From: an uncultured Rhodospirillales bacterium
GTDB taxonomy: Bacteria; Pseudomonadota; Alphaproteobacteria; Azospirillales; Azospirillaceae
DNA length: 64,000 nt
Direction of reading: 5' to 3'
Assembly: GCA_903931735.1 (NCBI GenBank)
Contig: CAIZDL010000192.1
Coordinates: 18,608-82,607, forward strand
Shown here: one piece after another, positions 1,184-16,181 of the stretch
Layout: each line of letters opens with the position of its first letter
Position numbering within the stretch: position 1 is the first letter of the stretch
The notes under the pieces: generated by a model
What the model saw: only the letters and a program-made list of their open reading frames with translations
Told to the model about the DNA's origin: nothing
Databases searched by the model: none
Program-made: the position numbers and the translations under genes

Positions 1184-1578
1184 CGGAAAGCCTCCAACGT
1201 CGGTTGCGCACCCGGCCTCGTCACTCTTCATGGACGATCATCGTGGCCTACAGTCGTCAAAGATAGCCTGAGCGTCACAAACTTTACAACAAGCATTTCC
1301 CACTAAACTATACAAAATCATCCTGCCCCGACAATTATCGCACCGCACAATACTCCATAAGCTCACTGAGCAACGAGCTATTTCTTCTCACTACAGCGGG
1401 ATTTACCTGCAAAATCATTACGAGTTTCTTAATAAAGACGTTTCAAATGCCCGCTTTTTTTCCACCACAAGGGAGGACGAATGCCGACACGCTTTGACGT
1501 ACAATTGTTCAATTGCCTTAGGGGACGCGCATCCGTATCATGGCTCAGGAGTCCCGTAACATTGAGGGGGGTATCAAC

Positions 1579-2433
1579 GTGTTGCTTGGCAAAAATCACT
1601 ATAACCGAACCGGCATCGCGCGGTCGGGCTTGGCTGCCATGGTCAGCGTTTCGCTTGTTCTTAGCAGCCTTACCGGATGCGTGACCACACGCGACGATCG
1701 GATCGGAGCCGACGACGGGTCCGACGCCTGCCTGGCCTATGTGGTCGCTCTCGACTCAACCGGCAACTATTTCGCCGAAGATATGATTAAGGGCGCAGCC
1801 ATTGGCGCGCTCGGCGGCGCGTTGATCGGCGGCATTGCGAGCGGCAACTGGCAAGGCGCGGCCATTGGCGCCGTCAGCGGTGCCGCAGTGGGCGCTCTCG
1901 GCGGCTACTGGAAGAGCAAAATGGATCAAGGCAAAGACCAAGCGGTCACCAGCCTGGCTTCCGACATGAACGCCGATGAAGCGCAACTGGACAAGAGCCA
2001 GGCCGCCTTCAAGCAACTCACCGCCTGCCGCCGCGATCAGGCTAAAAAGATCCGGGCGCAGTACACCGCAAAGTCGATCACCCGCGACGAAGCCCAAACC
2101 CGCCTGCGGATGCTGGGAACCCAGGCCCGTAAAGACGTTGATATCCTCAACGCCATTACTGGCAATGCCGATAAGCGCTTGGCCGAATACCAGTACGCCG
2201 CCAATCAAATCGACCCCAACGTTCCGGCACCGTCCGCATCGAACGAGAATTCGAGCAGTTCAAGCAGCTCGAGTGCCGACCGCAAGCCAAACCGTCCCCA
2301 CAAGCCGACACGGACGGGGCCGCCGACCACCCAGGGCTTTGCATCACTTCAGTCAAAAGCATCGACCCTCAAGCAGAACAGCTCCGACTACGCAGCAGAG
2401 TCGAGCGGTTGGGAAAGTGCCAAGCTGGGTTAA
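1579..2433 (+). CDS. Lipoprotein with a glycine-zipper segment, a coiled-coil region and a Ser-rich tail
   Basis: Lipobox LSSLTGC. Gly-zipper GAAIGALGGALIGGIASGNWQGAAIGAVSGAAVGALGG. The in-frame GTG at 1579 is preceded by GAGGGGGG; the track ORF starts at 1540. There is a poly-Ser run (SSSSSSSS) near the C-terminus. Confidence 0.75.
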   Translation: MLLGKNHYNRTGIARSGLAAMVSVSLVLSSLTGCVTTRDDRIGADDGSDACLAYVVALDSTGNYFAEDMIKGAAIGALGGALIGGIASGNWQGAAIGAVSGAAVGALGGYWKSKMDQGKDQAVTSLASDMNADEAQLDKSQAAFKQLTACRRDQAKKIRAQYTAKSITRDEAQTRLRMLGTQARKDVDILNAITGNADKRLAEYQYAANQIDPNVPAPSASNENSSSSSSSSADRKPNRPHKPTRTGPPTTQGFASLQSKASTLKQNSSDYAAESSGWESAKLG

Positions 2434-2520: not shown

Positions 2521-2647
2521 TGGCTTTCCGCCAGATTGTACGGGCCGTCTGATCATTTCATCAGGCGGATGGTTGCTTGAGTTGGCCGGTTCTTCAACAA
2601 GCTGCGTCATACCGGCGCCTTCGTGCCGGTTTCCGGGAGGGTTGCCG

Positions 2648-5600
2648 ATGTCTGTATTCCGGTTGGGCCGAGTGGGTTTGGCGCTGATTTTATCCCTGAC
2701 ACTCGCCATGGGGCGCTCCGCTCCGGCCGAGGCCGCCGATGGCGCCGCCTGGGTGGAACCACCGTCTGAGCCGTTCTTGCGCATCGAAACCGGGATGCAC
2801 ACCGCGATCATCAATCGAATTTCCGTGGACGCCACTGGGCGATTGGCGGCAACCGCCTCCGACGATAAAACCGTGCGCCTATGGTCTTTGCCGGAAGGGC
2901 GGCCGGTTGGAACGCTACGGGTGCCAATTGGCAATGGCCCCGAGGGCAGCCTTTACAGCGTCGCGCTGTCTCCCGATGGCGCCACCGTGGCTGCGGGCGG
3001 GTTCGTGGGCCAGCAATGGGACGGCCGCCCGTCCCTTTACCTTTTCGATGTCGCAAGCCGGAAGATCAAGGCACGGCTGCCAAAATTACCCAGCGAAATC
3101 CTCCATTTGGCCTTTTCTCCCGATGGCCGGCGGCTGGCGGCGGCCTTTGGCGGCGGCGCCGGATTGATCGTTTACGACATGGGCACCGGTAAAATCCTGG
3201 GGGAGGACCATAACTATAGCAACCAACCGTCAAATTGGGTCGCTTTCGCACAGGATGGACGCCTCGCCACCACCGGCTTTGACGGCAACGTGCGCCTTTA
3301 CGACGCCTCGGTGAAGTTGATCGCCAAGCGCACCCTGCCCGGCGCCAACCGGCCGTTTTCGGTCGCATTTTCACCCGACAATGCGACCTTGGCGGTGGGA
3401 TCGTTCGACACCCCGAAGGTTGATATCCTGTCGGCGGCCGACCTCAAATCCCGCTCCTCACCCGATACCAGCGACCTTAAAGGCGGCAATCTTGCGGCGG
3501 TGGCGTGGATCGAGGATGGACGCCAAGTCTTGCTGGCCGCAGGCGGCACCGCCAGCCGCGACGACGGCTCGCGCATCATCCGGGTTTGGTCGGGGGCCGG
3601 CACCGGGCGCTCGGTCGACATCTCCGCCGCAAAAGACTCGATCAACCAAATCGCGCCGCTCAGCGGGGGCGAGGCGCTGTTTGTGAGCGCCGCCCCGTCA
3701 TGGGGACGGATCGGCGCCGGCCGAAAACTGCTGGAGATAACCAGCCCCACCGCCAACTTCCGCGATATTTCCGCCGGTCGGTTCGCGGTTTCCGAAGATG
3801 GTCTCACCCTCGAATTTGGCATTGCGGCCAAGGGCCAGCGCCCGATGCGGTTGGACCTGCGCGACCATAGCTATGGCCCGGCTCCAAAAGCCGACCCAAC
3901 ACTTGCCAAAGCCATGACCGAGGCATCTGCCTTTAAAATAACAAATTGGCAGCATTCCAACGCGCCAATGATCGGAAACCGCAAGCTTCGGCTGGATGGC
4001 GAAGAAAGAACGCATAGTTTAGCGATCACTCCCGATGGTCAATCCTTTTTGCTGGGCGGTGACTATTGGCTCCGCTGGTTCAACAATACTGGTGCGTTGA
4101 TTGAAAAAGTGGCCATTCCCGCTGCTGCGACCGGCATCACCGTCACCCGATCAGGGACCACGGCGCTGGTCGCGCTCACCGATGGCACCCTTCATTGGTA
4201 TAACCTGGCCGGCGGCAGCAAACCTTTGGAGGAGCGCGCCTCCTTATTCGTTCATGGCGACGGCCAACGCTGGGTTGCCTGGACTCCGGAAGGATTCTTT
4301 GACCATGCTGAAAACGGCGGCAAGGATATGGTCGGATATCACTTCAACAAAGGACGAACCACCACGCCGGAGTTCATCAACTTCGCCCAGGTTTACCAAT
4401 TACTTCATAGCTCAGACTTGGTAATGAAGAAAATTACTGGCGGTTTTGACCCGGAAATTGCCCGAACCTATACCAATATCGGAAATCTGCGCGCCCGCTT
4501 TGAGCGCCATCCGCTGCCAAAGATTGAAAATCTTGAATATTGTTGGACCCAGGCGGGAGGGCAGGAAATGTGCCGTCCGATCAACGAAATTGGCACCCGC
4601 GGCTTTGTGCGCGACACCAGCCGACCAACCGCGCCCGGCAGCACGGTTTCAACCACCCCCTCCCCGGTCGCGGCTGCACTATCGGCGACAGTTCCTGCTG
4701 ATATTTCGCAAGTGAAGTTAAAGTTCAAAATTGTCGACGGCGGCGGCGGAGTGGGCGATATCGGCGTTTTTGTCAATGACCACAACATTGATCGCCAGGA
4801 TATCACCCGCGCATTTCGCCGCGATACTGGGTCCGCTGCTGCCATAACCTCGCCTGGCCCCCAGGGATTCAACCGACTTGTTTCGCTTGACCCGGGCAGT
4901 AACCGCATAGAACTTCGAATTTACGATGGCGCACGCACCGCCTTTGCCAGTTCCGGGCGGATAGAGCTGGTCCGCTCATCACCGCCGACCGAAGGCGGAC
5001 CGCAGCTAGCCCCCGCGAGCAAGCCCCGCCTGTTCGTTTTGGCGGCCGGCGTCGATGTCTACAAAAACCCGGCCTACCACCTGAATTTCCCCGTCGCCGA
5101 TGCCGAAGGGGTAACTGCGGCATTAAAAGACCGGGTGGGTGATCTATATGAAAAAGTATTTGTGCCAACCATTACGCCCAGTCGTGCTGTTGTGTTCGCC
5201 GAGGCAAAAACCGGCACCGCCGTTCTGGCCAACGAAAACGCGAGCCTTGAAATGATCGAAAAGGCATTCAAGGCCTTAACTACCGGTGATATCGTACGTC
5301 CCGCCGATACTGTCGTTATTTATTTGGCCGGACACGGCGTTCGTGAAGACGGTGGCGCCGGAAGCTCTCAGGCTGCTGGCAAATTCTACTTCATCACATC
5401 AAACGTCGACAGCCCCGATACCGTAGCCGGTCAAGCTCTTGGGCAAGATGTTCTGCTTCAACACCTCGTTGAGATTAACGGCAAAAAAGCGCACATTTTA
5501 CTTGTGCTGGATACGTGCCATTCGGGCGCTTTTGCCAAAGGCACCCCAATCGATGCCATCACCAACCTGAACGATGAAGCCGGGATCTCGGTGCTCGCCG

Positions 5601-5875
5601 CCGCCGCTTCAAACCAAGAAGCGCTCGATGGCTACCGACCCCAAGGACGCGGACGGGCCGAGCACGGCGTTTTTGCCTACGCGGTCATCTCGGGCATTGG
5701 CGGCGCTGCTACGGCCGATGAAACCGGGATCATTTACCCCACCTCATTGGCGCGCTATGTTAAAGAGGCCGTGATCAAGCTGGCAGCCGAGGTCAGCCCA
5801 AATCACAAGCAGCAAGCCAAATGGCAACCCCTTGGCGAACAAGACGACTTTCCTTTGGCACGGAAGTTTCGGTAG
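2648..5875 (+). CDS. Exported WD40-repeat / caspase-fold (peptidase C14) protein, 1075 aa
   Basis: ATG at 2648 after GGGAGGG. Signal peptide MSVFRLGRVGLALILSLTLAMGRSAPAEA. WD40-type repeats (DDKTVRLWSL, SPDGATVAAGG, SPDGRRLAAA, DGNVRLYD, SPDNATLAVGS). C-terminal C14 domain with YLAGHG (His codon 5333..5335) and LVLDTCHSG (Cys codon 5516..5518). Confidence 0.85.
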   Translation: MSVFRLGRVGLALILSLTLAMGRSAPAEAADGAAWVEPPSEPFLRIETGMHTAIINRISVDATGRLAATASDDKTVRLWSLPEGRPVGTLRVPIGNGPEGSLYSVALSPDGATVAAGGFVGQQWDGRPSLYLFDVASRKIKARLPKLPSEILHLAFSPDGRRLAAAFGGGAGLIVYDMGTGKILGEDHNYSNQPSNWVAFAQDGRLATTGFDGNVRLYDASVKLIAKRTLPGANRPFSVAFSPDNATLAVGSFDTPKVDILSAADLKSRSSPDTSDLKGGNLAAVAWIEDGRQVLLAAGGTASRDDGSRIIRVWSGAGTGRSVDISAAKDSINQIAPLSGGEALFVSAAPSWGRIGAGRKLLEITSPTANFRDISAGRFAVSEDGLTLEFGIAAKGQRPMRLDLRDHSYGPAPKADPTLAKAMTEASAFKITNWQHSNAPMIGNRKLRLDGEERTHSLAITPDGQSFLLGGDYWLRWFNNTGALIEKVAIPAAATGITVTRSGTTALVALTDGTLHWYNLAGGSKPLEERASLFVHGDGQRWVAWTPEGFFDHAENGGKDMVGYHFNKGRTTTPEFINFAQVYQLLHSSDLVMKKITGGFDPEIARTYTNIGNLRARFERHPLPKIENLEYCWTQAGGQEMCRPINEIGTRGFVRDTSRPTAPGSTVSTTPSPVAAALSATVPADISQVKLKFKIVDGGGGVGDIGVFVNDHNIDRQDITRAFRRDTGSAAAITSPGPQGFNRLVSLDPGSNRIELRIYDGARTAFASSGRIELVRSSPPTEGGPQLAPASKPRLFVLAAGVDVYKNPAYHLNFPVADAEGVTAALKDRVGDLYEKVFVPTITPSRAVVFAEAKTGTAVLANENASLEMIEKAFKALTTGDIVRPADTVVIYLAGHGVREDGGAGSSQAAGKFYFITSNVDSPDTVAGQALGQDVLLQHLVEINGKKAHILLVLDTCHSGAFAKGTPIDAITNLNDEAGISVLAAAASNQEALDGYRPQGRGRAEHGVFAYAVISGIGGAATADETGIIYPTSLARYVKEAVIKLAAEVSPNHKQQAKWQPLGEQDDFPLARKFR

Positions 5876-5896: not shown

Positions 5897-7747
5897 ATGG
5901 AGTCAATAATGCGCTGGATGGTTGCCGGACTAACCGCTTTAACTTTTGTGGCTGGAGCCCCAGCCCCAAACGCTTTCGCCGCTGTTAACACCTTTGGCTT
6001 GGTTATCGGCGTCGACGACTACCAGTATATTAGCCCGAAGCTTGAAGGCTCGGTCAACGACGCCACCGATGTGGCAAACGCGCTTCAAAAAGACGGCGCC
6101 CAAGATGTCAGACTATTGCTTGATCAAAAGGCGAGTCGAGATGCGATCATGGGCGCCTGGAATGACCTGATGGCAAAAGTGCAGAAAGGCGACAACCTAA
6201 TCTTTCATTTTGCCGGCCATGGCGGACAGGAACCGGAACATGTCAAAGGCTCCGAGGAGTCAGGCTATGACTCAACTTTACTTCTCGCGGGATTTTCGCT
6301 AAAGGGTCCCGGCACCTACGAACGCATCGTGGACGATGAATTGGGAGCGATGTTCCAACGCGCCTCCGACGCGGGCGTCAACCTGCTGGTGGCAATCGAT
6401 GCCTGCCATTCCGGCACCATGACCCGCGCCTTCAACAACCCATCGATCGCAAAGCCCCGTGTTCGGGCGGTGACCTATCTGCCGATTGCCGCAAGTGAGG
6501 ATCGATTGCCGTTGATAGACCCGGCTTGGTCAAAAATTCCCAAAGAACTGCCCCATGTGTTTTACTTCGGGGCGGTCCATGACCACGAAGAGGCCCCCGA
6601 GATTGCAATTGGCGGCCAACAACGGGGCGCCCTTAGCTGGTCGCTGGCATCGGGTTTACGGGGCGCCGCCGATGCCAACAAAGACGGGGTGATTACGGTC
6701 AGCGAATTGCGCGACTATATCATCGACCAAATCCAGATCAAAGTTGAAGGGCAACAGCATCCATCGATCATTCCCACCAAGTCCCGTGGGGTTACGTTTG
6801 TCGACAGAGGCGAGTTTTCGATTTTAAGCCCCCAAGCACTCGAGATTGTTAAGGTCGCGTCAAAGGATGGGCTCACCGACTATGCCAAACAATTACTGGC
6901 ACAAGCGGTTAAGGAGGGTCCGGGAGATTCCGGAACTGACAAACTTCAAGCTATTATGAAGGCTATTCAAGAAAAAGCCAAGAGCAATGCCCAACAGATC
7001 CCGTCAACCGCAATCCAGATGGCAATTATCAATACCTCACTCGGAGCCATGCCCGAACTGAGGGCACCCCTGACCAATGTTCAAATCGTCGAACCTGCAA
7101 GCAGGCCGCTCCTGACATGGGATGTGGGGAAACGAAGGGTTCTGTCTTCGCTCGGCGATATCGTCGCCGATTTTTCCAGCAGCGCCAGCACAACGGCCGA
7201 TGACACACGGGCCTTTAAGCGTCAGGTCAATACCAGCGAGTCCAAGCAAACGATTGGCGCTGCAACCGATGTGCCGATGGCTCAGGCGGTTATCGACAAA
7301 TGGCACCTTACGGAATTGATTAAGACGCTCGCCGAGAAGCAAAGCCTCGGCATTTCGCTCCAACCCGGTGACGCTATTCATACCCTCGGGGAGAAAGTAA
7401 TGTTTTCCGTCGAGGGCCAGAACCAACCCTACTTAACGTTATTTAACCTTGCTTCCGATGGCACCGTAAACTTTATTTACCCACTCGCTACCGCCGAGGT
7501 TAAGGACCCGCTCAACATCCCCCTCGGGCGGCCCTATGATGTGCCTCTTGTGGTTGCCCCCCCCTATGGGGCCGATCACCTTGTGGCGATCGCCAGTGCC
7601 GAACCGCTTGTCGAGCTCCATAAAACCCTAACGGAGATTGACAACAAGCCAACAGCGCGCGCCCTCGAAACCGCTCTACGCACACAACTCAACGGCCGTA
7701 CCTACCAAATCGGCATTCACGGCTCCTACACGGCCAAGCAGCGCTAG
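5897..7747 (+). CDS. Exported caspase-fold (peptidase C14) protein with a C-terminal DUF4384-like domain, 616 aa
   Basis: Signal peptide MRWMVAGLTALTFVAGAPAPNAFA. FGLVIGVDDY...FHFAGHGG (His 6218..6220) and VAIDACHSG (Cys 6404..6406). The C-terminal GDAIHTLGEKVMFSVEGQNQPYLTLFNLASDGTVNFIYP matches my recall of DUF4384. It starts 22 nt after the preceding gene. Confidence 0.85.
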   Translation: MESIMRWMVAGLTALTFVAGAPAPNAFAAVNTFGLVIGVDDYQYISPKLEGSVNDATDVANALQKDGAQDVRLLLDQKASRDAIMGAWNDLMAKVQKGDNLIFHFAGHGGQEPEHVKGSEESGYDSTLLLAGFSLKGPGTYERIVDDELGAMFQRASDAGVNLLVAIDACHSGTMTRAFNNPSIAKPRVRAVTYLPIAASEDRLPLIDPAWSKIPKELPHVFYFGAVHDHEEAPEIAIGGQQRGALSWSLASGLRGAADANKDGVITVSELRDYIIDQIQIKVEGQQHPSIIPTKSRGVTFVDRGEFSILSPQALEIVKVASKDGLTDYAKQLLAQAVKEGPGDSGTDKLQAIMKAIQEKAKSNAQQIPSTAIQMAIINTSLGAMPELRAPLTNVQIVEPASRPLLTWDVGKRRVLSSLGDIVADFSSSASTTADDTRAFKRQVNTSESKQTIGAATDVPMAQAVIDKWHLTELIKTLAEKQSLGISLQPGDAIHTLGEKVMFSVEGQNQPYLTLFNLASDGTVNFIYPLATAEVKDPLNIPLGRPYDVPLVVAPPYGADHLVAIASAEPLVELHKTLTEIDNKPTARALETALRTQLNGRTYQIGIHGSYTAKQR

Positions 7748-7830: not shown

Positions 7831-8160
7831 CTACTTACAAACGTTCACGATATTCCGCGCGGTTACCACCGTTTCCCGGCCGCTATTGACACCGCCGACG
7901 TTCATCGTACAATCCCCCTTCCGGGCGTTCCCCATATGAACGAGCGTGTCGGAGGTCGGGTCGTAAGAGTTCCCCCCACCGGTGTCGTTACTGTTCATGC
8001 CGCCCGTGGTCCCATATTGCCTCGCCTTGACAGCGTTGACGGCGGTATTTCCTGAGTTGGTCAGATGTGTGGGGTTATTGATGTCCCCTGCGTAAGCCAC
8101 CCCACCGCTAAGCATGAACGCCGCGATGAGAGCCATCAGGGGTCGGGTGCAGCTATACAT
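7831..8160 (-). CDS. Small secreted Asn/Gly/Thr-rich protein (109 aa), member of the local paralog family
   Basis: GGAGGA lies 5 nt before the ATG at 8160. Signal peptide ...MLSGGVAYA. Mature part NSGNTAVNAV...GDCTMNVGGVNSGRETVVTARNIVNVCK has a Cys pair near the C-terminus. Confidence 0.75.
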   Translation of the reverse strand: MYSCTRPLMALIAAFMLSGGVAYAGDINNPTHLTNSGNTAVNAVKARQYGTTGGMNSNDTGGGNSYDPTSDTLVHMGNARKGDCTMNVGGVNSGRETVVTARNIVNVCK

Positions 8161-8370
8161 TACAGTCCTCCATCAGAGTTTGACGAGATGATTAGAGCAC
8201 ATCTCCAAGATAATAGGCGATGCCGCCCGAAAAGAAACATCCGGGAACGATGCCCCGCTCTAACAACAAAACATATGCCTATTTCTCGAGCCGCGATAAG
8301 CAAGCTGTCGCTGGTGAGCCTGCCCAACCCATGGTATCCTGTCGCCTATCGAACTGAACAGGAGGGTGAT

Positions 8371-8676
8371 ATGAAACCCGCGACCTGCATTTGCGCCATA
8401 GTGGCCCTTGCCATCCCGTTGCTCCCGTTGGGCCACGCCCAGGGCCAAACGGCGAGCCAAAATATTACCATCAACTCCATTGGTGAGGACAACAGCACCT
8501 CGTTCCAGAGTGGAATCGCCAACGACAGCCAAGTCGTCGGCATCACCATAATCAATAATGAGATATGGATCGACGGCGAAAAAGTCCCGCGCGGTGCCAC
8601 CAAATTTACCGGCCGCTCGGGGAAAAACTACCGTATCGAACGAGTCGGCGGCGCCATCCAAGTTCGGGACGAGTAA
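8371..8676 (+). CDS. Small secreted protein (101 aa)
   Basis: The ATG at 8371 is preceded by GGAGGG (8361..8366). Signal peptide MKPATCICAIVALAIPLLPLGHA. Mature N-terminus QNITINSIGEDNSTSFQSGIAND resembles the NTTINA motif of the neighbouring small proteins. Confidence 0.7.
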   Translation: MKPATCICAIVALAIPLLPLGHAQGQTASQNITINSIGEDNSTSFQSGIANDSQVVGITIINNEIWIDGEKVPRGATKFTGRSGKNYRIERVGGAIQVRDE

Positions 8677-8695
8677 TCGCCCCCCATACCAACCA

Positions 8696-8724
8696 CCGCC
8701 CGCGCGGCTCGACCACGCGGGCGG
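8696..8724. terminator. Hairpin between convergent genes
   Basis: CCGCCCGCG (8696..8704) pairs with CGCGGGCGG (8716..8724): a 9-bp GC stem with an 11-nt loop. It lies between the stops at 8676 (+) and 8790 (-). Confidence 0.4.
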
Positions 8725-8789
8725 CATTGTCGATTGCCCGCTGGCGCAAACACCACAACCATGGCGCGACCACCTGGAAACAGCCATGG

Positions 8790-9377
8790 CTAGCGGCACC
8801 CCCCTCCCCCAACGGCGATGGTATTAACACCCTGAGCGTTGCTGGTGGGGTCGCCAGACCGGTCGACAACCACCACATTGCCCACCGTTCCCAGTGACAC
8901 CGTGGCACTCGTGCACGGACGACGGCCGCCATCGCCGTCCGACCAAGACCGCGCCCGATCCATGGCAGTGTCCAACGGACGCTGACTATCCAACCCGCCC
9001 GGCGGCGTCCCGGGCAAAATCACCAACGTATTATTCCCGCTTCGATTGCCATCTTTGCCTTGGGATTGCGCCTTCGCACGCAGACGGTTGCGAATCATCG
9101 CCTCCCGGTTTTTTTCCGCTGCCGCCTCGGCGGCCGAGCCCTCCGGCGCAATAATTATAATGTTGGGAACCGTCCCACGATTCGGGTCCCCATACATCCG
9201 CGCCCGGGCCTCGTTATCGATTCCCGCCTCCCGATTTACCTGCCCCGGACTGGGTGAGGCCGAAGCCTCACCCGACCCCAGAGGGACAACGATCAACTCG
9301 CCAGCAAAGGCAACGCCACAAACAAACGTCAGCAACCCCGCCAGTTGGACAAATGCCATTTCAATTTTGATCGCCAT
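8790..9377 (-). CDS. Secreted protein (195 aa); its C-terminus is related to the small repeat-protein family
   Basis: The ATG at 9377 is preceded by GGGAGG at 5 nt. Signal MAIKIEMAFVQLAGLLTFVCGVAFA. The C-terminal CTSATVSLGTVGNVVVVDRSGDPTSNAQGVNTIAVGGGGCR shares the GVNTIAVG motif and the terminal Cys pair. The mature N-terminus ELIVVP resembles EIIVAP of ORF 13147..13494. Confidence 0.7.
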   Translation of the reverse strand: MAIKIEMAFVQLAGLLTFVCGVAFAGELIVVPLGSGEASASPSPGQVNREAGIDNEARARMYGDPNRGTVPNIIIIAPEGSAAEAAAEKNREAMIRNRLRAKAQSQGKDGNRSGNNTLVILPGTPPGGLDSQRPLDTAMDRARSWSDGDGGRRPCTSATVSLGTVGNVVVVDRSGDPTSNAQGVNTIAVGGGGCR

Positions 9378-9394
9378 CCAAGCCTCCCGTGAGT

Positions 9395-9422
9395 AATCGG
9401 GGCGGACCATTCCGCCCCGATT
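9395..9422 (-). promoter_or_regulatory. Strong intercistronic stem-loop between the CsgG-like gene and the downstream gene
   Basis: AATCGGGGCGGA (9395..9406) pairs with TCCGCCCCGATT (9411..9422): a 12-bp perfect stem with a 4-nt loop. There is no U tract, and the SD of the next gene follows immediately. Confidence 0.5.
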
Positions 9423-9427
9423 TCACA

Positions 9428-10915
9428 TTACTGCACGGTTATGTCGAGCCGCGACGTGGAAACATTGGGATTGGCCGCCCGGAAGATCCCATCAATCTCT
9501 TCGAGTGAGCCAACCGCCAACCTTGTCAGATCTTTTTCTTTCAACTTGGCCGGCAAGGGGACCTCCGACTCGCTCGCCAAGCACGAGACAACCTCGTGAC
9601 CGGCCTTATCAAAGCGGATTTTTACCGGCTGCTGCGGCGCCGACAAAGGCACCATCCGGCTACTCACATAGGCGTTCGGCTGGAAGCGGTTGGGGAACAA
9701 GCGCGCAATCGTGCCGTCCGCATCCTGATAGTAGCAGTAGAGGAACGAATTGCGCCCCAGATCGACCCTGGCGCTGAGGATGGAATTCGGCTCATACGTC
9801 GGGTTCGCGCCACGATCCGAAAGCACCGTAACCGGCACCAGCGTCTTGGTAACAGTCACCGGCGGCGGACGGCGGGTGTCGTCGGCAACCGGAGCTTCAT
9901 CGTCCAACAAGGCGAAATACAGCTCGAAATTAGTCTGGCCGTTCGCGATTAAGCCATTGCTGGCCTGATAGCGGCCAATCGCCTCGCGGGTCGCCGAATC
10001 AAGCTCGCCGTTCGCAGAACCCTGATAAATATTCGTGGCCGACAGCTTGCGCTGAACAAAGCTTACTTTGTCCTTCAGGCCCATCGCGTCGTACCATTCG
10101 CGCGCCTGCTCCCGCAGTTTTGGGTTGCTCTTCTCGATCTGCAAGCATTTCCAATACGGCGTATGGGAGAACTGGCCGACCATTTCGATCGCACCCAGTT
10201 CAATAAGTGCGCGCACCGCGGCACCAAGCCCTTCCGACGTATTAAACGAAATATTGATGCTAAGGCCCATCTTACCAATCTTGCCGCCCGCCTCACCTGA
10301 GCGACCAAGCCGGACCACCGCCATAGTATTACTGGAACCAGCATCGGAAATGATTTGGCGCGATACGGTCTCGCCAATATTCATATCCAACCCAACCAGC
10401 GAAACAATCTGGTCTTTCGAGATACCGAGATCGGCGAAGGGGGTTGATATCGCCCCGCCGAGTTGGCTTTCCAAGGCATTGTCATCCAACTGGGTGATGG
10501 CACCACGAATATAATATGATGGCACCTTATAACCAGCACCCGACGCCCGCTGCGCATCGATGAAGAAGCTGGCATTCAGTGGGTCATAATCAATATAGGA
10601 AAACGCTTTTGACTTCCGGGACATCAGGTTGAGCGCCCTGATCAGCATTTCTTTAGTGCCGACCGAAACTTTTTGGGTCGAATCTGTAATGCCGGCAGTC
10701 GTGATTGTGATATCATGCTTGCCGTAAGTCATCATCAAATTGTCCATGCACTGCAAGGCCGGCGTAAAGCTGGTGAAGGTCTTGCTGGCTGGTGTCTTCG
10801 GCGCGGCTGCAAGCGTCGCCGTATCCGGGTCTGGCGTCACGCAACCGACCACCATGCCCGCTGCAATCAGACATGCGGCAAGCTGGCGAGCCCTCTTCTT
10901 AAATGTTGGGTTCAT
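9428..10915 (-). CDS. Lipoprotein fusing a CsgG-like domain, a peptidoglycan-binding (PG_binding_1-like) domain and a DUF4384-like domain, 495 aa
   Basis: ATG at 10915 with GGAGGA upstream. Lipobox AAGMVVGC. YYIRGAITQLDDNALESQLGGA, SKDQIVSLVGLDMNIGETVSRQII and NTSEGLGAAVRALIELGAIEMVGQ align by eye with E. coli CsgG (IMVEGSIIGYESNVKSGGVGA, QLDQIAVNLRVVNVSTGEIL, SNEPVMLCLMSAIETGVIFLI). VQRKLSATNIYQGSANGELDSATREAIGRYQASNGLIANGQ looks like PG_binding_1. SARVDLGRNSFLYCYYQDADGTIARLFPNRF looks like DUF4384. Confidence 0.8.
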   Translation of the reverse strand: MNPTFKKRARQLAACLIAAGMVVGCVTPDPDTATLAAAPKTPASKTFTSFTPALQCMDNLMMTYGKHDITITTAGITDSTQKVSVGTKEMLIRALNLMSRKSKAFSYIDYDPLNASFFIDAQRASGAGYKVPSYYIRGAITQLDDNALESQLGGAISTPFADLGISKDQIVSLVGLDMNIGETVSRQIISDAGSSNTMAVVRLGRSGEAGGKIGKMGLSINISFNTSEGLGAAVRALIELGAIEMVGQFSHTPYWKCLQIEKSNPKLREQAREWYDAMGLKDKVSFVQRKLSATNIYQGSANGELDSATREAIGRYQASNGLIANGQTNFELYFALLDDEAPVADDTRRPPPVTVTKTLVPVTVLSDRGANPTYEPNSILSARVDLGRNSFLYCYYQDADGTIARLFPNRFQPNAYVSSRMVPLSAPQQPVKIRFDKAGHEVVSCLASESEVPLPAKLKEKDLTRLAVGSLEEIDGIFRAANPNVSTSRLDITVQ

Positions 10916-10960
10916 GGATACCAAGGTCCTCCGTTGTTGGTCGCGCTCCAATCCTGACCG

Positions 10961-11923
10961 TCAGGGCGAACGCGAACGCTCCTTTTGAAAAAATCGGCTC
11001 GGCGGCGCCCCCGCCCAGAACCGGCTCACTAAACCCTCGACTTCCCCCACCGTCAAACCAACCATAGCAGGGCTAAAAACGTCATGGGAAGGTGTATGGA
11101 TCAGATACGCCTGTGTCTCGTTAATCATCAGGTCGCCATTTTCGGGATCATACCCCTTACCGGCGAGAAACTTCCGAAACGCGGCCCGCTCACTCTCGGT
11201 TAGTCCCCTCGCCCAAAAATCCCGGCAATATTCCGAGTAGGCTGGGTTGGTATAATACTCGCCATGAGAAATCTCATGGTGAAGAATAGCCTTGCGAAGT
11301 TGGGGTGTAATAGCAGCCTGACCCGATTTCTTGCGAACAGCAACCGATCCGCCCCCACTCTGTGGAATTGAAATAATAACTCGCTCAGGTGGGACCGGGG
11401 TGTAGAACTCAAACTTGCGCTCCATCACCCCTTTAGCAATGAGAAAATCACGAAGGCCAATCTCATCGTTATTTAAATCGATTTTCTCGTCACTGGCGAT
11501 TGTATAAAACTTGGCTAAGTCAACACTGCGAAAATCATTACCGTATGCGTAAGTTGCGAAACCTTTGCCCGATGCCGTCATCAGGCCTTCCAACTGTGTG
11601 TCGGTCAACACATGTTCGCGTTCCCCGCCCTGACGCTCGATAAGGGCGAGGATGCGGCTAAACATCCGCCCTTGCTGCTCAAGCTCCGGAAAATCAAGGA
11701 TAAAGACCGCCGGATTACCGGCAACGACGTGAATGGCCAACTGCCGACTGTGAAACGACTCAAGCGCCGCCACACTGGCCGCCATCCGCACCTCGGCATC
11801 AAACGCCCAGGCTCCCCGACACTCAAAAACGCCAACCAGAAAAGCCGTGGCCGCGACACCAACCGCCGCGGCGAGCCCCGCGCCACCACAACCAGCGAAT
11901 ACGCGGGGACCTCGCCTCGACAT
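10961..11923 (-). CDS. Membrane-anchored hypothetical protein with an HExxH motif (possible metallohydrolase), ~320 aa
   Basis: The track ORF 10961..11950 starts at a GTG; an ATG at 11923 has GAGG upstream. N-terminal hydrophobic anchor AGLAAAVGVAATAFLVGVF. Motif ILHHEISHGEYY (H-E-I-S-H). I recognise no family. Confidence 0.6.
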   Translation of the reverse strand: MSRRGPRVFAGCGGAGLAAAVGVAATAFLVGVFECRGAWAFDAEVRMAASVAALESFHSRQLAIHVVAGNPAVFILDFPELEQQGRMFSRILALIERQGGEREHVLTDTQLEGLMTASGKGFATYAYGNDFRSVDLAKFYTIASDEKIDLNNDEIGLRDFLIAKGVMERKFEFYTPVPPERVIISIPQSGGGSVAVRKKSGQAAITPQLRKAILHHEISHGEYYTNPAYSEYCRDFWARGLTESERAAFRKFLAGKGYDPENGDLMINETQAYLIHTPSHDVFSPAMVGLTVGEVEGLVSRFWAGAPPSRFFQKERSRSP

Positions 11924-11978
11924 GAGCCTCACCAAATTTTGCGACCACACCCAGGACGCACCAAACGAAACGCGCCGA

Positions 11979-12695
11979 TCAGCCTTTCAATTCGAACTGA
12001 ACACGACGATTGGAGGGATCGCGAGGGCTCGCGCCATTGAGCGGCTGGCTTGGCCCTTTCCCAACGGCGGTAAGACGCGACCCTTCAAGACCATATTTTT
12101 GCATCAAAACATCGCGGACAGCATTGGCCCGCGCCATCGAAAGCTCCATGTTCCGAGCATAGACACCGCTCGCATCGGTATGACCCTCGATTGTCAACGA
12201 GTATTGCTTCTCTTCCGTCAAGATCTTGGCGATACCATCCAGAAACGCCTCGGACCCCGGCCGCAAAGACGCCGACCCGACATCAAACTGAATCCGCATC
12301 GCGACCTGTTTGCCGCCACCCGATTCCTGACTGCTCGAAGACGCCGCTGGCCGTGCTGGCCGCGGCCGTGACGCCGACGAAGGCTGTTGACGACGGGGTT
12401 GCTGACGTGCGGCCGGCGGCGAATCAGAGTCATCGGAGGCGGATGAGGCTGACGGCGCCGCAGGAGCGGCAGGGGCCGCCGGAGCAGCAGGGCCATCAAT
12501 CTGAATGCTGCGAGTCCGCACGGCGGGCTTGTGAGTCATGCCCAACGCATCGCGCAGCTCATCGACGCTCGGCGGGGCATCGAATACCTTGACACTCTCA
12601 GCATGAGCGGAAAGTCCCAACAAGAACACAACCGAGGCAAAACCAATAGTCGCGTGGATAAGCCTGGATCGGCGGCCTGTTAGTCTGCTCATCAT
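11979..12695 (-). CDS. OmpA-family peptidoglycan-binding protein with a Pro/Ala/Ser-rich linker
   Basis: Signal ...FLLGLSAHA. Linker PAAPAAPAAPAAPSASSAS. OmpA_C motifs: IQFDVGSASLRPGS...LTIEGHTDASGVYARNMELSMARANAVRDVL...NRRVQFEL. Confidence 0.85.
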   Translation of the reverse strand: MMSRLTGRRSRLIHATIGFASVVFLLGLSAHAESVKVFDAPPSVDELRDALGMTHKPAVRTRSIQIDGPAAPAAPAAPAAPSASSASDDSDSPPAARQQPRRQQPSSASRPRPARPAASSSSQESGGGKQVAMRIQFDVGSASLRPGSEAFLDGIAKILTEEKQYSLTIEGHTDASGVYARNMELSMARANAVRDVLMQKYGLEGSRLTAVGKGPSQPLNGASPRDPSNRRVQFELKG

Positions 12696-12789
12696 GACGT
12701 TACCCCTTCATAAAGATTCGCCCCGCGGGGCACTGTTCATACCGGCAAAATCTTAAGTCTGCTCCAAACCTTAGGTCTGGGCCTAAACC

Positions 12790-13101
12790 TTAGTCGCACT
12801 TGCCCGACGACCCGATATTGATGCACCCCTTGCGACCGTGACCGGTCACAATGTTATCGACGTTCTTCACATCGACCGTCACCGAAGTCGGCCCCCTGGT
12901 GCTTTCATCGATCACACCAATCCGCGTGTTGGCGGTATTGCCAGTCCCGGCCGCGATCGTGTTGACATTCCGTGCGGTGGCATCAATGTGCGTCGTCCCC
13001 TTTATCTGGACGCCGCCCGACTGCTGGGCCAACGCGGAGGTCCCCGCAACCAGTGCCAAAGACACCACCATGCCCCCGAGAACCATAGTTGAGCGACGCA
13101 T
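12790..13101 (-). CDS. Small secreted repeat protein (103 aa), paralog family
   Basis: ATG at 13101 with GGAGAA upstream. Signal MRRSTMVLGGMVVSLALVAGTSALA. VQIKGTTHIDATARNVNTIAAGTGNTANTRIGVI is a repeat homologous to that of ORF 13619..13951. The C-terminus GRKGCINIGSSGKCD has a Cys pair. Confidence 0.75.
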   Translation of the reverse strand: MRRSTMVLGGMVVSLALVAGTSALAQQSGGVQIKGTTHIDATARNVNTIAAGTGNTANTRIGVIDESTRGPTSVTVDVKNVDNIVTGHGRKGCINIGSSGKCD

Positions 13102-13146
13102 AGTGTTCTCCATATTTGAGCAAAACATTAACCAATCAAAGCCAAA

Positions 13147-13494
13147 CTACCGCGAGAGCAAAATGATTGTTTGGTGATTGGGTGCACTGGTCCCCCGCCG
13201 AAGATCTTCCGCGTGCCACAATGACCGGCTGACATTACTCTGGCTGGAGCGCAACGCACCAGAGCTACCGCCACCTCCACCCGGCAACGGCGCCAGCAGC
13301 GGCGTCTGGGGGTAATAAAGGATGGTCGACGGCACCGCCAGCGCAGACGAATGGACCACCAGGGGGATACCAATCCCCTCACCCGGCGCCACAATGATCT
13401 CTGCGCGGGCAGGCAGGATCGCGACCCAACCCAACGCGACGAAACCGACCAATCGGGCCGCACCCGAAATCAGGAGACGACAAACGCGTTTCAT
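13147..13494 (-). CDS. Small secreted protein (115 aa)
   Basis: The ATG at 13494 is preceded by GGGAGG at 7 nt. Signal MKRVCRLLISGAARLVGFVALGWVAILPARA. The mature N-terminus is EIIVAPGEG, and there is a Gly run PGGGGGSSG. Confidence 0.65.
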   Translation of the reverse strand: MKRVCRLLISGAARLVGFVALGWVAILPARAEIIVAPGEGIGIPLVVHSSALAVPSTILYYPQTPLLAPLPGGGGGSSGALRSSQSNVSRSLWHAEDLRRGTSAPNHQTIILLSR

Positions 13495-13570
13495 GACCAC
13501 GCCTCCCACCCATTATAAATGAGCCCAACACGTGCCATTATCAAGCAAACTACTATCAAGTAAACGACCC

Positions 13571-13610
13571 GGAGCCGGGCAACCTCGCTAAAAGCGCGCT
13601 GCCCGGCTCC
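13571..13610 (-). terminator. Stem-loop immediately after the first small-protein gene (partial terminator or attenuator candidate)
   Basis: GGAGCCGGGCA (13571..13581) pairs with TGCCCGGCTCC (13600..13610): an 11-bp stem with an 18-nt loop. It lies 8 nt downstream of the stop at 13619 and before the next gene in the same orientation. Confidence 0.45.
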
Positions 13611-13618
13611 AGTGCTGC

Positions 13619-13951
13619 TTACTTACCAATCCCACCAACGGTGGTCTTGGCCTTGTTGTTCTGCCCAACTGCGGTGGTGTTCACATCAACCGCAGTGGCG
13701 TTGATCGTGGTGTTGCCCTGAATCTGGGTGCCGCCACCGATGGCGCCAACCGCAGTTTCCGCAGTGTTACCCTGCCCAATGGCGGTGGTGTTCAGATTCC
13801 GGCCACTGGCGTTAATCGTCGTGTTGCCCTGAATCTGTACCCCGTCCGGATTGGTGCTCGACTGCATCCGAACGCCGCCCGCTGACTGCGCAAAAGCGGC
13901 ACCAGCCAAGGCAACGACGGCAACAGCGGTGAGGACTGCAAGCTTACGCAT
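13619..13951 (-). CDS. Small secreted tandem-repeat protein (110 aa), candidate major subunit of the family
   Basis: GGAGG lies 7 nt before the ATG at 13951. Signal MRKLAVLTAVAVVALAGAAFA. Two ~36-aa repeats: VQIQGNTTINASGRNLNTTAIGQGNTAETAVGAIGGG and TQIQGNTTINATAVDVNTTAVGQNNKAKTTVGGIGK. Confidence 0.8.
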   Translation of the reverse strand: MRKLAVLTAVAVVALAGAAFAQSAGGVRMQSSTNPDGVQIQGNTTINASGRNLNTTAIGQGNTAETAVGAIGGGTQIQGNTTINATAVDVNTTAVGQNNKAKTTVGGIGK

Positions 13952-14135: not shown

Positions 14136-14999
14136 TTAACCAAGGGGTGGATCGCCGGAATCGGCATCAAAAACCACCCGCTCAGCGCCAGAAAGTACAG
14201 TAAACCTTTTTCCCCGCGCCCGCCCGATCAAGGTTAAGTTTACTTGCCGCGCCAGTTGAACCCCCCATGCTGTAAAGCCTGAGCGTGATACAAGAATTGG
14301 CAACCCCATTCTTACCGTCTTTATCACCATTTCGCTGGTCAACCTGCCCGTGGTGTAAAATATTTTGTCATCTGGATCGATAGATCGACGCGCCATCGCC
14401 CCCGCAATCTTGTCAACGGCATTGTGACGCCCAACATCTTCCATAAACAACAGGGGTTGATCGCGACAGCAAAGAACGCAACCATGAATAGCGCCGGCGG
14501 CACTATAGAGACTGGGCGTAGCCGTAATTCGGCTCGAAATAGCGTAAAGCCAGCTCGCGTGGATGCGTGCGGACTCCGATAATTTGGCCTGCGCAAAATT
14601 TTCCAGCACATCGCCAAATGCTGTGCCCTGCGCACAGCCTGAAGTCAGCGTCTTGCGCTTCAGTTTGGCCTCAAAGTCTGTGCGCCGCCCGGTTCGGACC
14701 ACCACCGCCTCAACCTCGGCATCATAGTCGATGCCGGTAATGGCGTCGTTGGGGCCAATCATGTTTTGGTTGAGCAAGTACCCCAACGCCAACTCTTCAA
14801 CATAGTCGCCGATGGTCATCAGCGTGACGATTTCCTGACCATTGAGGAACAGCGTCAGCGGCCGTTCAACCACCACCGGCAGCTCGACCGCCTGCCCGGT
14901 TTGATCGATACCGGTCACACGCTCGGTCAACCTCGGGTCTTCTGGATCGGGCTGAATGACATAAGGGGTCACGGGTCCGGCTCCGCTGGCTATGAACAC
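14136..14999 (-). CDS. fdhD: Formate dehydrogenase accessory sulfurtransferase FdhD
   Basis: PLTLFLNGQEIVTLMTIGDYVEELALGYLLNQ, EDVGRHNAVDKIAG, and TGRLTSEMVIKTVRMGLPILVSRSGFT are typical of FdhD. The start is uncertain. I chose the in-frame GTG at 14999 (287 aa); the track ORF extends to 15233. Confidence 0.85.
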   Translation of the reverse strand: MFIASGAGPVTPYVIQPDPEDPRLTERVTGIDQTGQAVELPVVVERPLTLFLNGQEIVTLMTIGDYVEELALGYLLNQNMIGPNDAITGIDYDAEVEAVVVRTGRRTDFEAKLKRKTLTSGCAQGTAFGDVLENFAQAKLSESARIHASWLYAISSRITATPSLYSAAGAIHGCVLCCRDQPLLFMEDVGRHNAVDKIAGAMARRSIDPDDKIFYTTGRLTSEMVIKTVRMGLPILVSRSGFTAWGVQLARQVNLTLIGRARGKRFTVLSGAERVVFDADSGDPPLG

Positions 15000-15077
15000 C
15001 GATTGACTCGGCTCCTGTCCCCTCGCACACTTCAACCGGGGTTTCAACCATGGCGGCAAACGGTGAGAACAGGCAAC

Positions 15078-16181
15078 ATGAGAAACCCGCTTGACCCGCC
15101 CATAAACGAGCGATGCGGCCCCACCCAGAGGGTGGATACCAACCACGCCCGAAGGGCCGATACCAACCAAGCCCGCACTTGGATCGATGGCTGGCCGCAG
15201 CTTGCCCGCAGCGAAATCGTTGACCGCACCCACGCCCTTGGCCGGGTCCTAGCGGAAACGGTGGCCGCCCCCCATGATATCCCGCCGTTCGATCAAGCGC
15301 TCATCGCCGGCTATGCTGTCCGCGCCGCCGCCACGGTGGGCGCCGGGAGCTACACGCCCTTGACGCAACCGCTGGCGCACGCGGTCACGCGAGGCCAGCC
15401 AATGCCGGATGGCGCCGACGCCGTGCTGCCGTTTGAGGCGACCACCTCTGGCCCCACGGGGCAGATTGAAGCAACGGGCACCGTCGCCGAGGGCGATGGC
15501 ATGGAGCCCCGCGGTCAAAGTTTGCGCGCCCACACCCCCGCCCTGAGTTATGGCCGCCCCCTTAGTCCCGAGGCCCTGGGGCTGCTCGCGCAGTTTGGCC
15601 ATCAAACGGTGCGGGTCCTGTGCCACCCCTGGGTGCGACTGGAGGACAGCGCCAACACGCCACTGCTGGCCCCCCTGATCAAGCGGGATGGCGGCATCGC
15701 CGCACCGGCGGGCACCGAACCGGACTTAATCCTCATCCCCGGCGGCGCCTACGCCCAGACCGAATTTGCGCTGGAACTCGATGGCCTAGCGCTGCGCCCG
15801 GGGGGTGAAGCCGGGCTCGGCCGCTGCCAGAACGTGCCGGTGATCCGGCTCCCACAAGAGCCTCTGGCCTGCCTCACCGCCTATGAACTGCTCGCCGGAC
15901 GATTGCTCCGGCGCTTGGGCGGGCGGCCCTGCGCCCTGCCTCACCCCACATGCCAAGTCCCGCTGACCCGCAAGATCAGCTCGGCCATTGGCTGGGTCGA
16001 GGTGGTGCGGGTGGTGCTTGCGGGAAACGGGGCCGAGCCGCTAGGCTCCACGGAAGGCGGCGGGCTGGTAACGGCCTGCCGCGCCGATGGCTTTGTTATT
16101 ATCCCGCCAGGCCGGGAAGGGTTTGGCTCGGGCGAAATCGTGACCGTCCATCTGCTGCACGCGAGGGATGATGACTGGTGA
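15078..16181 (+). CDS. Degenerate MoeA-like protein (MoeA N- and C-terminal domains, eroded central MoCF-binding domain)
   Basis: ALGRVLAETVAAPHDIPPFDQALIAGYAV replaces the usual SAMDGYAV. It lacks the STGDE and GGxSxGxxD motifs but keeps a MoeA_C-like end (GFVIIPPGREGFGSGEIVTVHLL). The start is uncertain: the ATG at 15078 is the first that does not overlap fdhD. Confidence 0.65.
   Translation: MRNPLDPPINERCGPTQRVDTNHARRADTNQARTWIDGWPQLARSEIVDRTHALGRVLAETVAAPHDIPPFDQALIAGYAVRAAATVGAGSYTPLTQPLAHAVTRGQPMPDGADAVLPFEATTSGPTGQIEATGTVAEGDGMEPRGQSLRAHTPALSYGRPLSPEALGLLAQFGHQTVRVLCHPWVRLEDSANTPLLAPLIKRDGGIAAPAGTEPDLILIPGGAYAQTEFALELDGLALRPGGEAGLGRCQNVPVIRLPQEPLACLTAYELLAGRLLRRLGGRPCALPHPTCQVPLTRKISSAIGWVEVVRVVLAGNGAEPLGSTEGGGLVTACRADGFVIIPPGREGFGSGEIVTVHLLHARDDDW

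Follow-up and report, generated by a model that had tools for sequence, protein, structure and literature searches.

A conserved gene cluster pairing a predicted beta-solenoid repeat protein with a predicted CsgG-fold lipoprotein points to a new surface-fibre system in environmental Proteobacteria

Introduction

To which cellular system do six small exported proteins belong, two of them built from an Asn/Thr/Gly-rich repeat, that are encoded close together in an uncultured Rhodospirillales bacterium (assembly GCA_903931735.1)? The DNA analysed here is a stretch of 64,000 nucleotides of contig CAIZDL010000192.1 (positions 18,608 to 82,607, hereafter the window), and the six open reading frames (ORFs), named A to F, lie between positions 7831 and 13951 of it. 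An initial annotation made from the letters of the window had taken them for one family of secreted paralogs resembling curlin or YadA-head repeats. We find that the region holds the core of a conserved extracytoplasmic system of nine genes, which encode A to F together with an OmpA-like protein, a protein with an HExxH motif and a CsgG-like lipoprotein. The cluster suggests a new surface-fibre system of the curli or holdfast type among environmental Proteobacteria.

Few bacterial pathways for the export of functional amyloids or fibres are understood, namely those of curli, Fap, Hfa, chaplins and TasA. The curli-type (type VIII) pathway is a nucleation-precipitation secretion system, the hallmark of which is that every component is exported and none resides in the cytoplasm or inner membrane.

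Results

Six exported proteins and three partners

The six ORFs lie at the coordinates and on the strands originally given, and public gene callers agree on all six, predicting proteins of 110, 115, 103, 195, 101 and 109 amino acids for A to F on an identical metagenomic contig. The strong Shine-Dalgarno sequences that had been noted take the form of GGAG or GGAGG 6-9 nt upstream of each start. Likewise, an N-terminal Sec signal peptide with an AxA-type cleavage site can be read directly from all six sequences, the sites listed across the ORFs being AFA-Q, ARA-E, ALA-Q, AFA-G, GHA-Q and AYA-G. The sequence motifs quoted in the initial annotation are present as well.

Three further genes, all on the minus strand, are interspersed with the six ORFs. 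The first (11979..12695) encodes an exported, peptidoglycan-binding OmpA-like protein with a Pro/Ala/Ser-rich linker (Pfam OmpA, 5.7e-21), the second (10961..11950) a protein with an invariant HExxHxE motif that matches no known family, and the third (9428..10915) a lipoprotein of 495 amino acids. Public callers start the HExxH protein at 11785, an internal ATG that yields 274 amino acids and no signal peptide. Since its orthologs have signal peptides and the ORF in the window has a hydrophobic segment upstream of this ATG, a start near 11923 is likely and the annotated version probably too short.

A and C form a repeat family with a 37-residue unit

A (13619..13951, minus strand) is an exported protein in which the signal peptide is followed by a disordered SSNP peptide and two 37-residue repeats of the form QIQGNT...GxGNTA...GAIGG, while C (12790..13101, minus strand) is its paralog and comprises one canonical and one degenerate rung. 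In blastp comparisons among the six proteins A and C match with an E-value of 1e-12, whereas all other pairs remain at E >= 0.04, so that neither a paralog family of six nor a motif common to four members is borne out and significant similarity is confined to A and C. A hidden Markov model (HMM) of the 37-residue repeat, built from 34 homologs of A and scored against 700 ORFs of the window, finds two copies in A (E 1e-34), one in C (1.6e-12) and no match in B. D, E and F take ranks 3, 5 and 6 in the same scoring, but with E-values of 0.23-3.2, and so hold short repeat fragments at most.

The repeat consensus is VQIQGNTTINANAKNVNTTAVGQGNTAKNTVGAIGGG. The period of about 18 residues proposed before is thus half of the actual unit, which consists of two GNT-centred halves of 19 and 18 residues, and it is the spacing of these two GNT turns that gave rise to the shorter estimate. 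The description of A as an almost pure two-repeat unit holds, its repeats being identical at 23 of 37 amino acids (62%). Mature A has 89 residues, contains neither Cys nor aromatic residues and consists to 56% of N, T, G and Q. In C the last arc of the degenerate second rung is flanked by two Cys in the family alignment (GCINIGSSGKCD). The original proposal is borne out in that all six proteins are small and exported and that A and C make up a real repeat family.

An exhaustive HMM search of 1.84 billion representative proteins assigns 280 clusters to the A/C family, nearly all of 95-150 amino acids and with few fusions. In two of these rare fusions, P0247 (588 amino acids) and P0183 (371 amino acids), 3-4 A-type rungs precede a Cys-bracketed arc, CAETRxGxIGxRxC, and a domain of about 200 amino acids. 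A giant match of 7296 amino acids (P0297) was rejected; it arises by chance through the string IQIQGNTT and, judged by eye, looks like a fibronectin-type repeat protein. Residues 22-37 of A form the disordered Q-x-S-S-N-P-x-G peptide before the first rung, which is kept in almost all members of the A family and recalls the N-terminal targeting segment of CsgA.

A GC-rich hairpin lies directly 3' of the A stop codon (13557..13625, minus strand), with a core stem at about 13568-13612 followed by a weak U-tract. The 116 nt past the stop fold at -55 kcal/mol (z = -6.2), in agreement with the hairpin annotated there, which may be a terminator or attenuator. A genes occur in 1-3 tandem copies (157 ORFs in 80 loci), and in related loci strong structure is usually found 3' of the last A gene in the tandem.

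A is predicted to fold as a two-rung beta-solenoid

An AlphaFold2 model of A from a 35-sequence alignment reaches a predicted local distance difference test (pLDDT) score of about 90 or higher over residues 40-110. Its strands fall into two sets, 38-41, 44-60 and 63-68, then 75-78, 81-97 and 100-105, with lengths of 4, 17 and 6 residues in each. These equal lengths in successive repeats suggest parallel in-register stacking into a flattened solenoid, and the model is consistent with two stacked beta-solenoid rungs. A Foldseek search of the model against the PDB gives no significant match, the non-significant top matches all being beta-solenoids, namely the CsgA fibril, the FapC fibril (second-best, E 1.9), Ag43 and ice-binding proteins.

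The proposed kinship with curlin and YadA heads has to be divided. A beta-solenoid is indeed predicted, and a functional analogy to curli or HfaA is strengthened by the adjoining lipoprotein described below, while homology to curlin or YadA heads finds no support. Curlin_rpt (PF07012) matches none of 35 A/C-family members at E <= 10. YadA_head (PF05658) matches nine of the 35 below threshold, at best with E 0.073 and 12 bits against a cutoff of 25 bits. In hhalign comparisons with Escherichia coli CsgA and CsgB only the signal peptide or four residues align, and searches of A to F against Pfam and NCBIfam give no match for any of the six.

The lipoprotein has a predicted CsgG fold

The 495-residue lipoprotein consists of an N-terminal CsgG-fold domain followed by PG_binding_1 and an immunoglobulin (Ig)-like DUF4384 domain. 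In its AlphaFold2 model the N-terminal half has the CsgG fold: the best Foldseek match, by more than two orders of magnitude in E-value, is CsgG (4uv2, E 9e-7, probability 1.0), and FlgT, HpaA and CsgFG complexes come next. This is further supported by hhalign, which aligns the lipoprotein with E. coli CsgG over 164 columns (E 1.5e-4). Pfam CsgG (PF03783; COG1462) matches 10 of 25 lipoprotein homologs weakly (best E 7.5e-4), and some homologs are labelled 'CsgG' by JGI. The lipoprotein of the window itself has no Pfam CsgG match at E <= 1 and hence does not reach the gathering threshold. Among NCBIfam models of the CsgG/HfaB type HfaB is the sole match, at E 2.4e-6 but with 27 bits against a cutoff of 300 bits. 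Searches against PDB CsgG with phmmer and hmmsearch give nothing, so that the relationship is seen by fold search and hhalign only. Two lipoproteins of locus L003 that appear CsgG-like by eye were set aside, as they lack Pfam support.

In a global alignment with E. coli CsgG the lipobox Cys (VVGC) and the DxTG motif are aligned, and segments corresponding to both transmembrane-hairpin inserts of CsgG are present at equal length. The insert columns alternate between hydrophobic and polar residues as membrane beta-strands do, for example in K-I-G-K-V-G-F-S-F-N-M-S-L-N. In the model of the monomer, pLDDT is low over the first of the two inserts. We propose that the lipoprotein is an outer-membrane channel.

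B, D, E and F are accessory families of their own

Each of the six ORFs has its own ortholog in the same locus across Alpha-, Beta-, Gamma- and Deltaproteobacteria. A relative with a 77% identical lipoprotein, locus L087, contains orthologs of five of the six, with identities of 74% for A, 45% for B (E 1e-17), 62% for C, 54% for D (E 7e-60) and 60% for F, which establishes B and D, the least convincing of the ORFs, as real genes too. By sequence comparison, B, D, E and F are four separate conserved accessory families and not paralogs of A.

B (13147..13494, minus strand) is an exported, Pro-rich protein with the mature N-terminus AEIIV and an SNVSRSLW...LRR motif, and has positional and motif equivalents in loci L001, L003, L004 and L025. 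D (8790..9377, minus strand) is exported, starts its mature part with GELIVV, carries N-x-x-R-A-R-x-Y-like motifs and ends in Cys...VGGGGCR. Sequence divergence puts the D and B families beyond the reach of BLAST, and they were recognised by their position, by N-x-x-R-A-R-x-Y motifs and by the N-terminus (A/G)E(I/L)I(I/L)V of the mature protein. In the window and in L025 (6428-7012 and 7363-7710) both families have this N-terminus in common directly after the signal peptide, as well as repeated N-x-x-(K/R)-A-(R/H)-x-(Y/F) motifs, and such a common segment could serve as a docking or targeting peptide. E (8371..8676, plus strand) is exported and has a conserved GVTIINxxxWIDGxxVP...YRIER core. 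F (7831..8160, minus strand) is exported and contains the invariant Cys pair C..MNVG....VNVCK. Family profiles of E, F and the HExxH protein give no meaningful match in the PDB.

The C-terminal Cys pairs that had been noted in three members are present in C, D and F. Translations from three distant loci show the pair in all C-type and D-type orthologs, it is present in all but one of 24 C-family sequences listed, and in the F family it is invariant (C84 and C108, alignment A4). In A, C, D, F and their orthologs the C-terminal residue is mostly Lys or Arg (...IGK, ...CK, ...CR), in A also N, Q or H. Such an end might be recognised by the Arg/Lys-specific caspase-like proteases or serve in wall attachment.

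The cluster is conserved across Proteobacteria

A scan of one genome per species returned 79 loci. The hosts are mostly Betaproteobacteria (Accumulibacter, Dechloromonas, Propionivibrio, Sulfuritalea, Sterolibacterium, Azonexus, Rhodocyclus, Gallionella, Rhodoferax, Simplicispira and Giesbergeria), joined by Rhodospirillales, magnetotactic Alphaproteobacteria, Desulfobulbaceae and one gammaproteobacterium. Synteny was counted in the 46 related loci of at least 20 kb, a gene being scored when it lies within 10 kb of an A gene. By this measure an OmpA-like gene accompanies A in 40 of the 46 loci, a CsgG-like gene in 39, HExxH and F in 38 each, and an E gene in 36 of them. The genes are usually arranged in a conserved order: CsgG-like, D, E, B, HExxH, C, F, OmpA and then one to three A genes.

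A compact version in L087 (6128-10422) reads A-B-C-OmpA-CsgG-like-D-F and lacks HExxH and E, suggesting that neither of these two is strictly essential. This compact cluster adjoins an alpha-2-macroglobulin/PBP1c gene pair.

Neighbouring genes

Next to F the window encodes, on the plus strand, an exported caspase-like (C14) protease (5897..7747) with AGHGG and DACHSG motifs and a C-terminal DUF4384, a domain type also found in the CsgG-like lipoprotein. The two DUF4384 domains, compared with each other, show no special similarity. This gene is adjoined by a WD40+caspase protein (2573..5875, plus strand), and a Gly-zipper lipoprotein (1540..2433, plus strand) lies near these caspase-like proteases. 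Caspases flank the locus also in L001, L003, L004, L085 and L086, and the Terasakiella locus L001 is adjoined by a similar set of a Gly-zipper lipoprotein and WD40-caspases. The exported caspase with its DUF4384 is possibly a module associated with the core, and the Gly-zipper lipoprotein and the caspases may form such an associated module. An anti-phage defence system was considered and rejected, as PADLOC matches the generic caspase model only.

In a 'divergent' betaproteobacterial form a CHASE2-guanylate/adenylate cyclase always adjoins the A genes (L003 4810-6717, L004 5774-7678, L085 4934-6799 and L086 5524-7458), which suggests control by cyclic nucleotides. On the other side of this form lie a protein of 208-222 amino acids that looks FecR-like by eye but has no Pfam match, an autotransporter-like barrel, an alpha/beta-hydrolase and one or two caspases. 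None of the CHASE2 cyclase, FecR-like, barrel or hydrolase genes is found within the window by tblastn at E <= 1e-3.

On the far side of A, positions 14136-19418 hold FdhD and then an opposite-strand run of three MoeA-like molybdopterin molybdotransferase genes, among them one that also encodes a PBP-like domain. These genes are unrelated to the cluster.

Discussion

A proposed type VIII-like export and assembly system

What do the nine proteins do together? We favour, by a slight balance of probability, a type VIII-like export and assembly system for a new beta-solenoid fibre, in which A and C would leave the cell through the CsgG-like channel and polymerise on the surface. All core products carry signal peptides and are extracytoplasmic, and the cluster encodes nothing for energy coupling, a design of the curli type and similar to Hfa, and it is this design that leads us to the export reading. 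Channel function, export of A, polymerisation and the roles of the individual proteins are what we infer in the following scheme. All products would cross the inner membrane by Sec. The lipoprotein would oligomerise into a CsgG-type outer-membrane channel, which its PG_binding_1 domain and the OmpA-like partner would tether to the cell wall. A, as the major subunit, would be exported and polymerise head-to-tail into a cross-beta/beta-solenoid fibre or a surface layer, whereas C, with its disulfide-locked last rung, would be a minor subunit acting as nucleator, cap or anchor. By analogy with CsgC/E/F/B or HfaD, the accessory proteins B, D, E and F may serve as chaperones, adaptors or anchors.

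Several observations weigh against this scheme. By sequence, A and C have no homology to curlin, FapC or any solved structure: the A-family profile finds nothing at E <= 10 in a copy of the PDB expected to hold the CsgA fibril (8enq) and FapC (9u4u). The AlphaFold2 model of A is a monomer, and parallel stacking follows from equal strand lengths and not from coordinates. In both the hhalign and the global alignment the lipoprotein has a 12-residue deletion at the CsgG constriction loop. Proteins with a CsgG fold are not always channels, as seen from FlgT, HpaA and the LPHT ring among the Foldseek matches. Judging by their Cys pairs, C, D and F would fold in the periplasm, which sets them apart from curli substrates. 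Finally, an assignment of E as CsgE and F as CsgF has to be rejected with hhalign probabilities below 1% for both. Loss of the constriction loop, the residues of which are Tyr/Asn/Phe in CsgG, may on the other hand widen the pore and thereby allow the passage of the disulfide-containing C, D and F.

Alternative readings

An alternative that we regard as unlikely, yet as the most serious of those considered, starts from the same components and places the polymer inside the envelope. Here the lipoprotein would be an outer-membrane-anchored ring without channel function, A and C would polymerise between outer membrane and peptidoglycan, the OmpA-like protein and PG_binding_1 would anchor the polymer in the wall, and peptidoglycan would be modified through the HExxH protein, with a role in cell shape or envelope mechanics following the logic of CrvA and bactofilins. 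In a more unusual variant the periplasmic polymer may be a determinant of curvature or shape. The two peptidoglycan-binding modules in the core, the Foldseek matches to the non-channel FlgT, HpaA and LPHT ring, the absence of the constriction loop and the oxidative folding in the periplasm suggested by the Cys pairs all fit such a polymer. Among the hosts Rhodocyclus purpureus, Giesbergeria anulus, Simplicispira, Terasakiella, Propionivibrio, Azonexus, Gallionella and Rhodoferax are ones that we take to be curved, spiral or ring-shaped, and to our knowledge heavily sequenced straight-rod relatives are not among the named hosts. However, Accumulibacter and Dechloromonas, which are not known to be curved, carry the locus too. 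Both putative CsgG-type transmembrane-hairpin inserts are kept, with amphipathic beta patterns, CsgG is by far the best structural match of the lipoprotein, and HExxH and E are dispensable in the compact relative L087, all of which argue against the periplasmic placement.

It is improbable, in our estimate, that A and C instead act as soluble monomers or small oligomers, the flat Thr/Asn/Gln faces of which would bind mineral, ice or polysaccharide as part of a surface-binding or adhesion module. The Thr/Asn-rich ladders, weak Foldseek matches to beta-helical ice-binding proteins and the presence of iron oxidisers, magnetotactic bacteria and floc formers among the hosts are in line with this idea, but the matches are non-significant (E > 4, TM score about 0.1), an open-ended two-rung solenoid is unlikely to be stable as a monomer, and the tight link to a CsgG-fold protein and many accessory proteins would remain unexplained. 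Very little speaks for the literal initial reading of six paralogs as divergent curlin or YadA-head members, which we consider highly improbable: a common N/T/G-rich composition, the sub-threshold YadA_head matches and the high but non-significant ranks of D, E and F against the repeat HMM are outweighed by significant similarity between A and C alone, by the separate orthologous families of B, D, E and F, by the missing Curlin_rpt match, by null hhalign comparisons with CsgA and CsgB and by the lack of a trimeric-autotransporter anchor.

Relation to known systems

The proposed export system can be compared with known fibre and polymer systems. With curli it has in common an outer-membrane lipoprotein of predicted CsgG fold with lipobox, DxTG motif and both putative hairpin inserts, and small Sec-exported Gln/Asn/Gly-rich repeat subunits with predicted stacked strand-turn-strand rungs. 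Further common features are a pair of paralogs proposed as major and minor subunit, a number of small exported accessory proteins, the lack of any cytoplasmic or inner-membrane energy component and the linkage of the repeat protein to a CsgG-family lipoprotein, which lies in the same gene row here and within 10 kb of an A gene in 39 of 46 loci. In contrast to the curli subunit, which has five rungs of about 22 residues with the Curlin_rpt pattern S-x5-Q-x-G-x-x-N-x-A-x3-Q, the subunit here has two rungs of 37 residues without this signature. The putative channel differs in that it lacks the 12-residue constriction loop and carries PG_binding_1 and DUF4384 in addition. None of the accessory proteins is related to CsgC, CsgE or CsgF, OmpA-like and HExxH partners are added, and three components carry disulfide pairs.

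In the Caulobacter holdfast anchor (HfaA, HfaB, HfaD) small exported amyloid-like proteins need a CsgG-like lipoprotein for anchoring at the surface, and the HfaB model matches the lipoprotein of the window, far below cutoff. Unlike Hfa, A to F match no NCBIfam family, the peptidoglycan-binding and DUF4384 domains are not Hfa features, and no holdfast polysaccharide genes were seen nearby. FapC of Pseudomonas is likewise secreted, is rich in N, G, A, T and Q and has repeats of similar length (about 35-40 residues), but Fap exports through the FapF barrel and not through a CsgG-fold protein, and no Fap genes were seen here. YadA heads and other trimeric autotransporter adhesins resemble A in their short N/T/G/A-rich beta repeats and through the weak sub-threshold Pfam matches, whereas A ends after its second repeat without a membrane anchor and repeat length and register differ. 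Bactofilins, with their beta-solenoid, and the periplasmic CrvA form nucleotide-independent polymers, the logic on which the periplasmic alternative is modelled. Bactofilins are however cytoplasmic, and a Pfam scan gives no bactofilin match here. The stalk-formation (sfz/sfb) cluster of iron oxidisers was also considered and discarded, since it consists of unrelated polysaccharide genes (PMC8250860).

On balance the cluster is best filed among the CsgG-dependent fibre or anchor systems. Searches of the literature, of family models and for defence systems found no description of this system and no model matching it. At least seven protein families can be defined (A/C, B, D, E, F, HExxH and the CsgG-PG-DUF4384 architecture), six of which have no Pfam or NCBIfam model, while the lipoprotein is modelled for PG_binding_1 and DUF4384 only.

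A more far-reaching view, which we put forward tentatively and rate as a little short of an even chance, combines these features. It would be a previously unrecognised branch of type VIII (CsgG-family) systems, with a loop-less, wall-tethered channel, a new functional-amyloid-like fibre, two-rung subunits with 37-residue repeats and disulfide-locked minor subunits. As part of the same joint reading, such a system would be widespread in Rhodocyclales including Accumulibacter, in Gallionellaceae, in Comamonadaceae and in magnetotactic Alphaproteobacteria, and would often be wired to a CHASE2 cyclase and exported caspase-like proteases.

The hosts include key bacteria of wastewater and groundwater (Accumulibacter, Dechloromonas, Propionivibrio, Gallionella and Sulfuritalea), the floc, granule and biofilm matrices of which hold uncharacterised amyloid-like material. 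If the proposal is true, the cluster would contribute a new subunit architecture together with a structurally distinct CsgG-type channel, loop-less and fused to peptidoglycan-binding and Ig-like domains, which would be of interest for the mechanism of secretion and for nanopore engineering.

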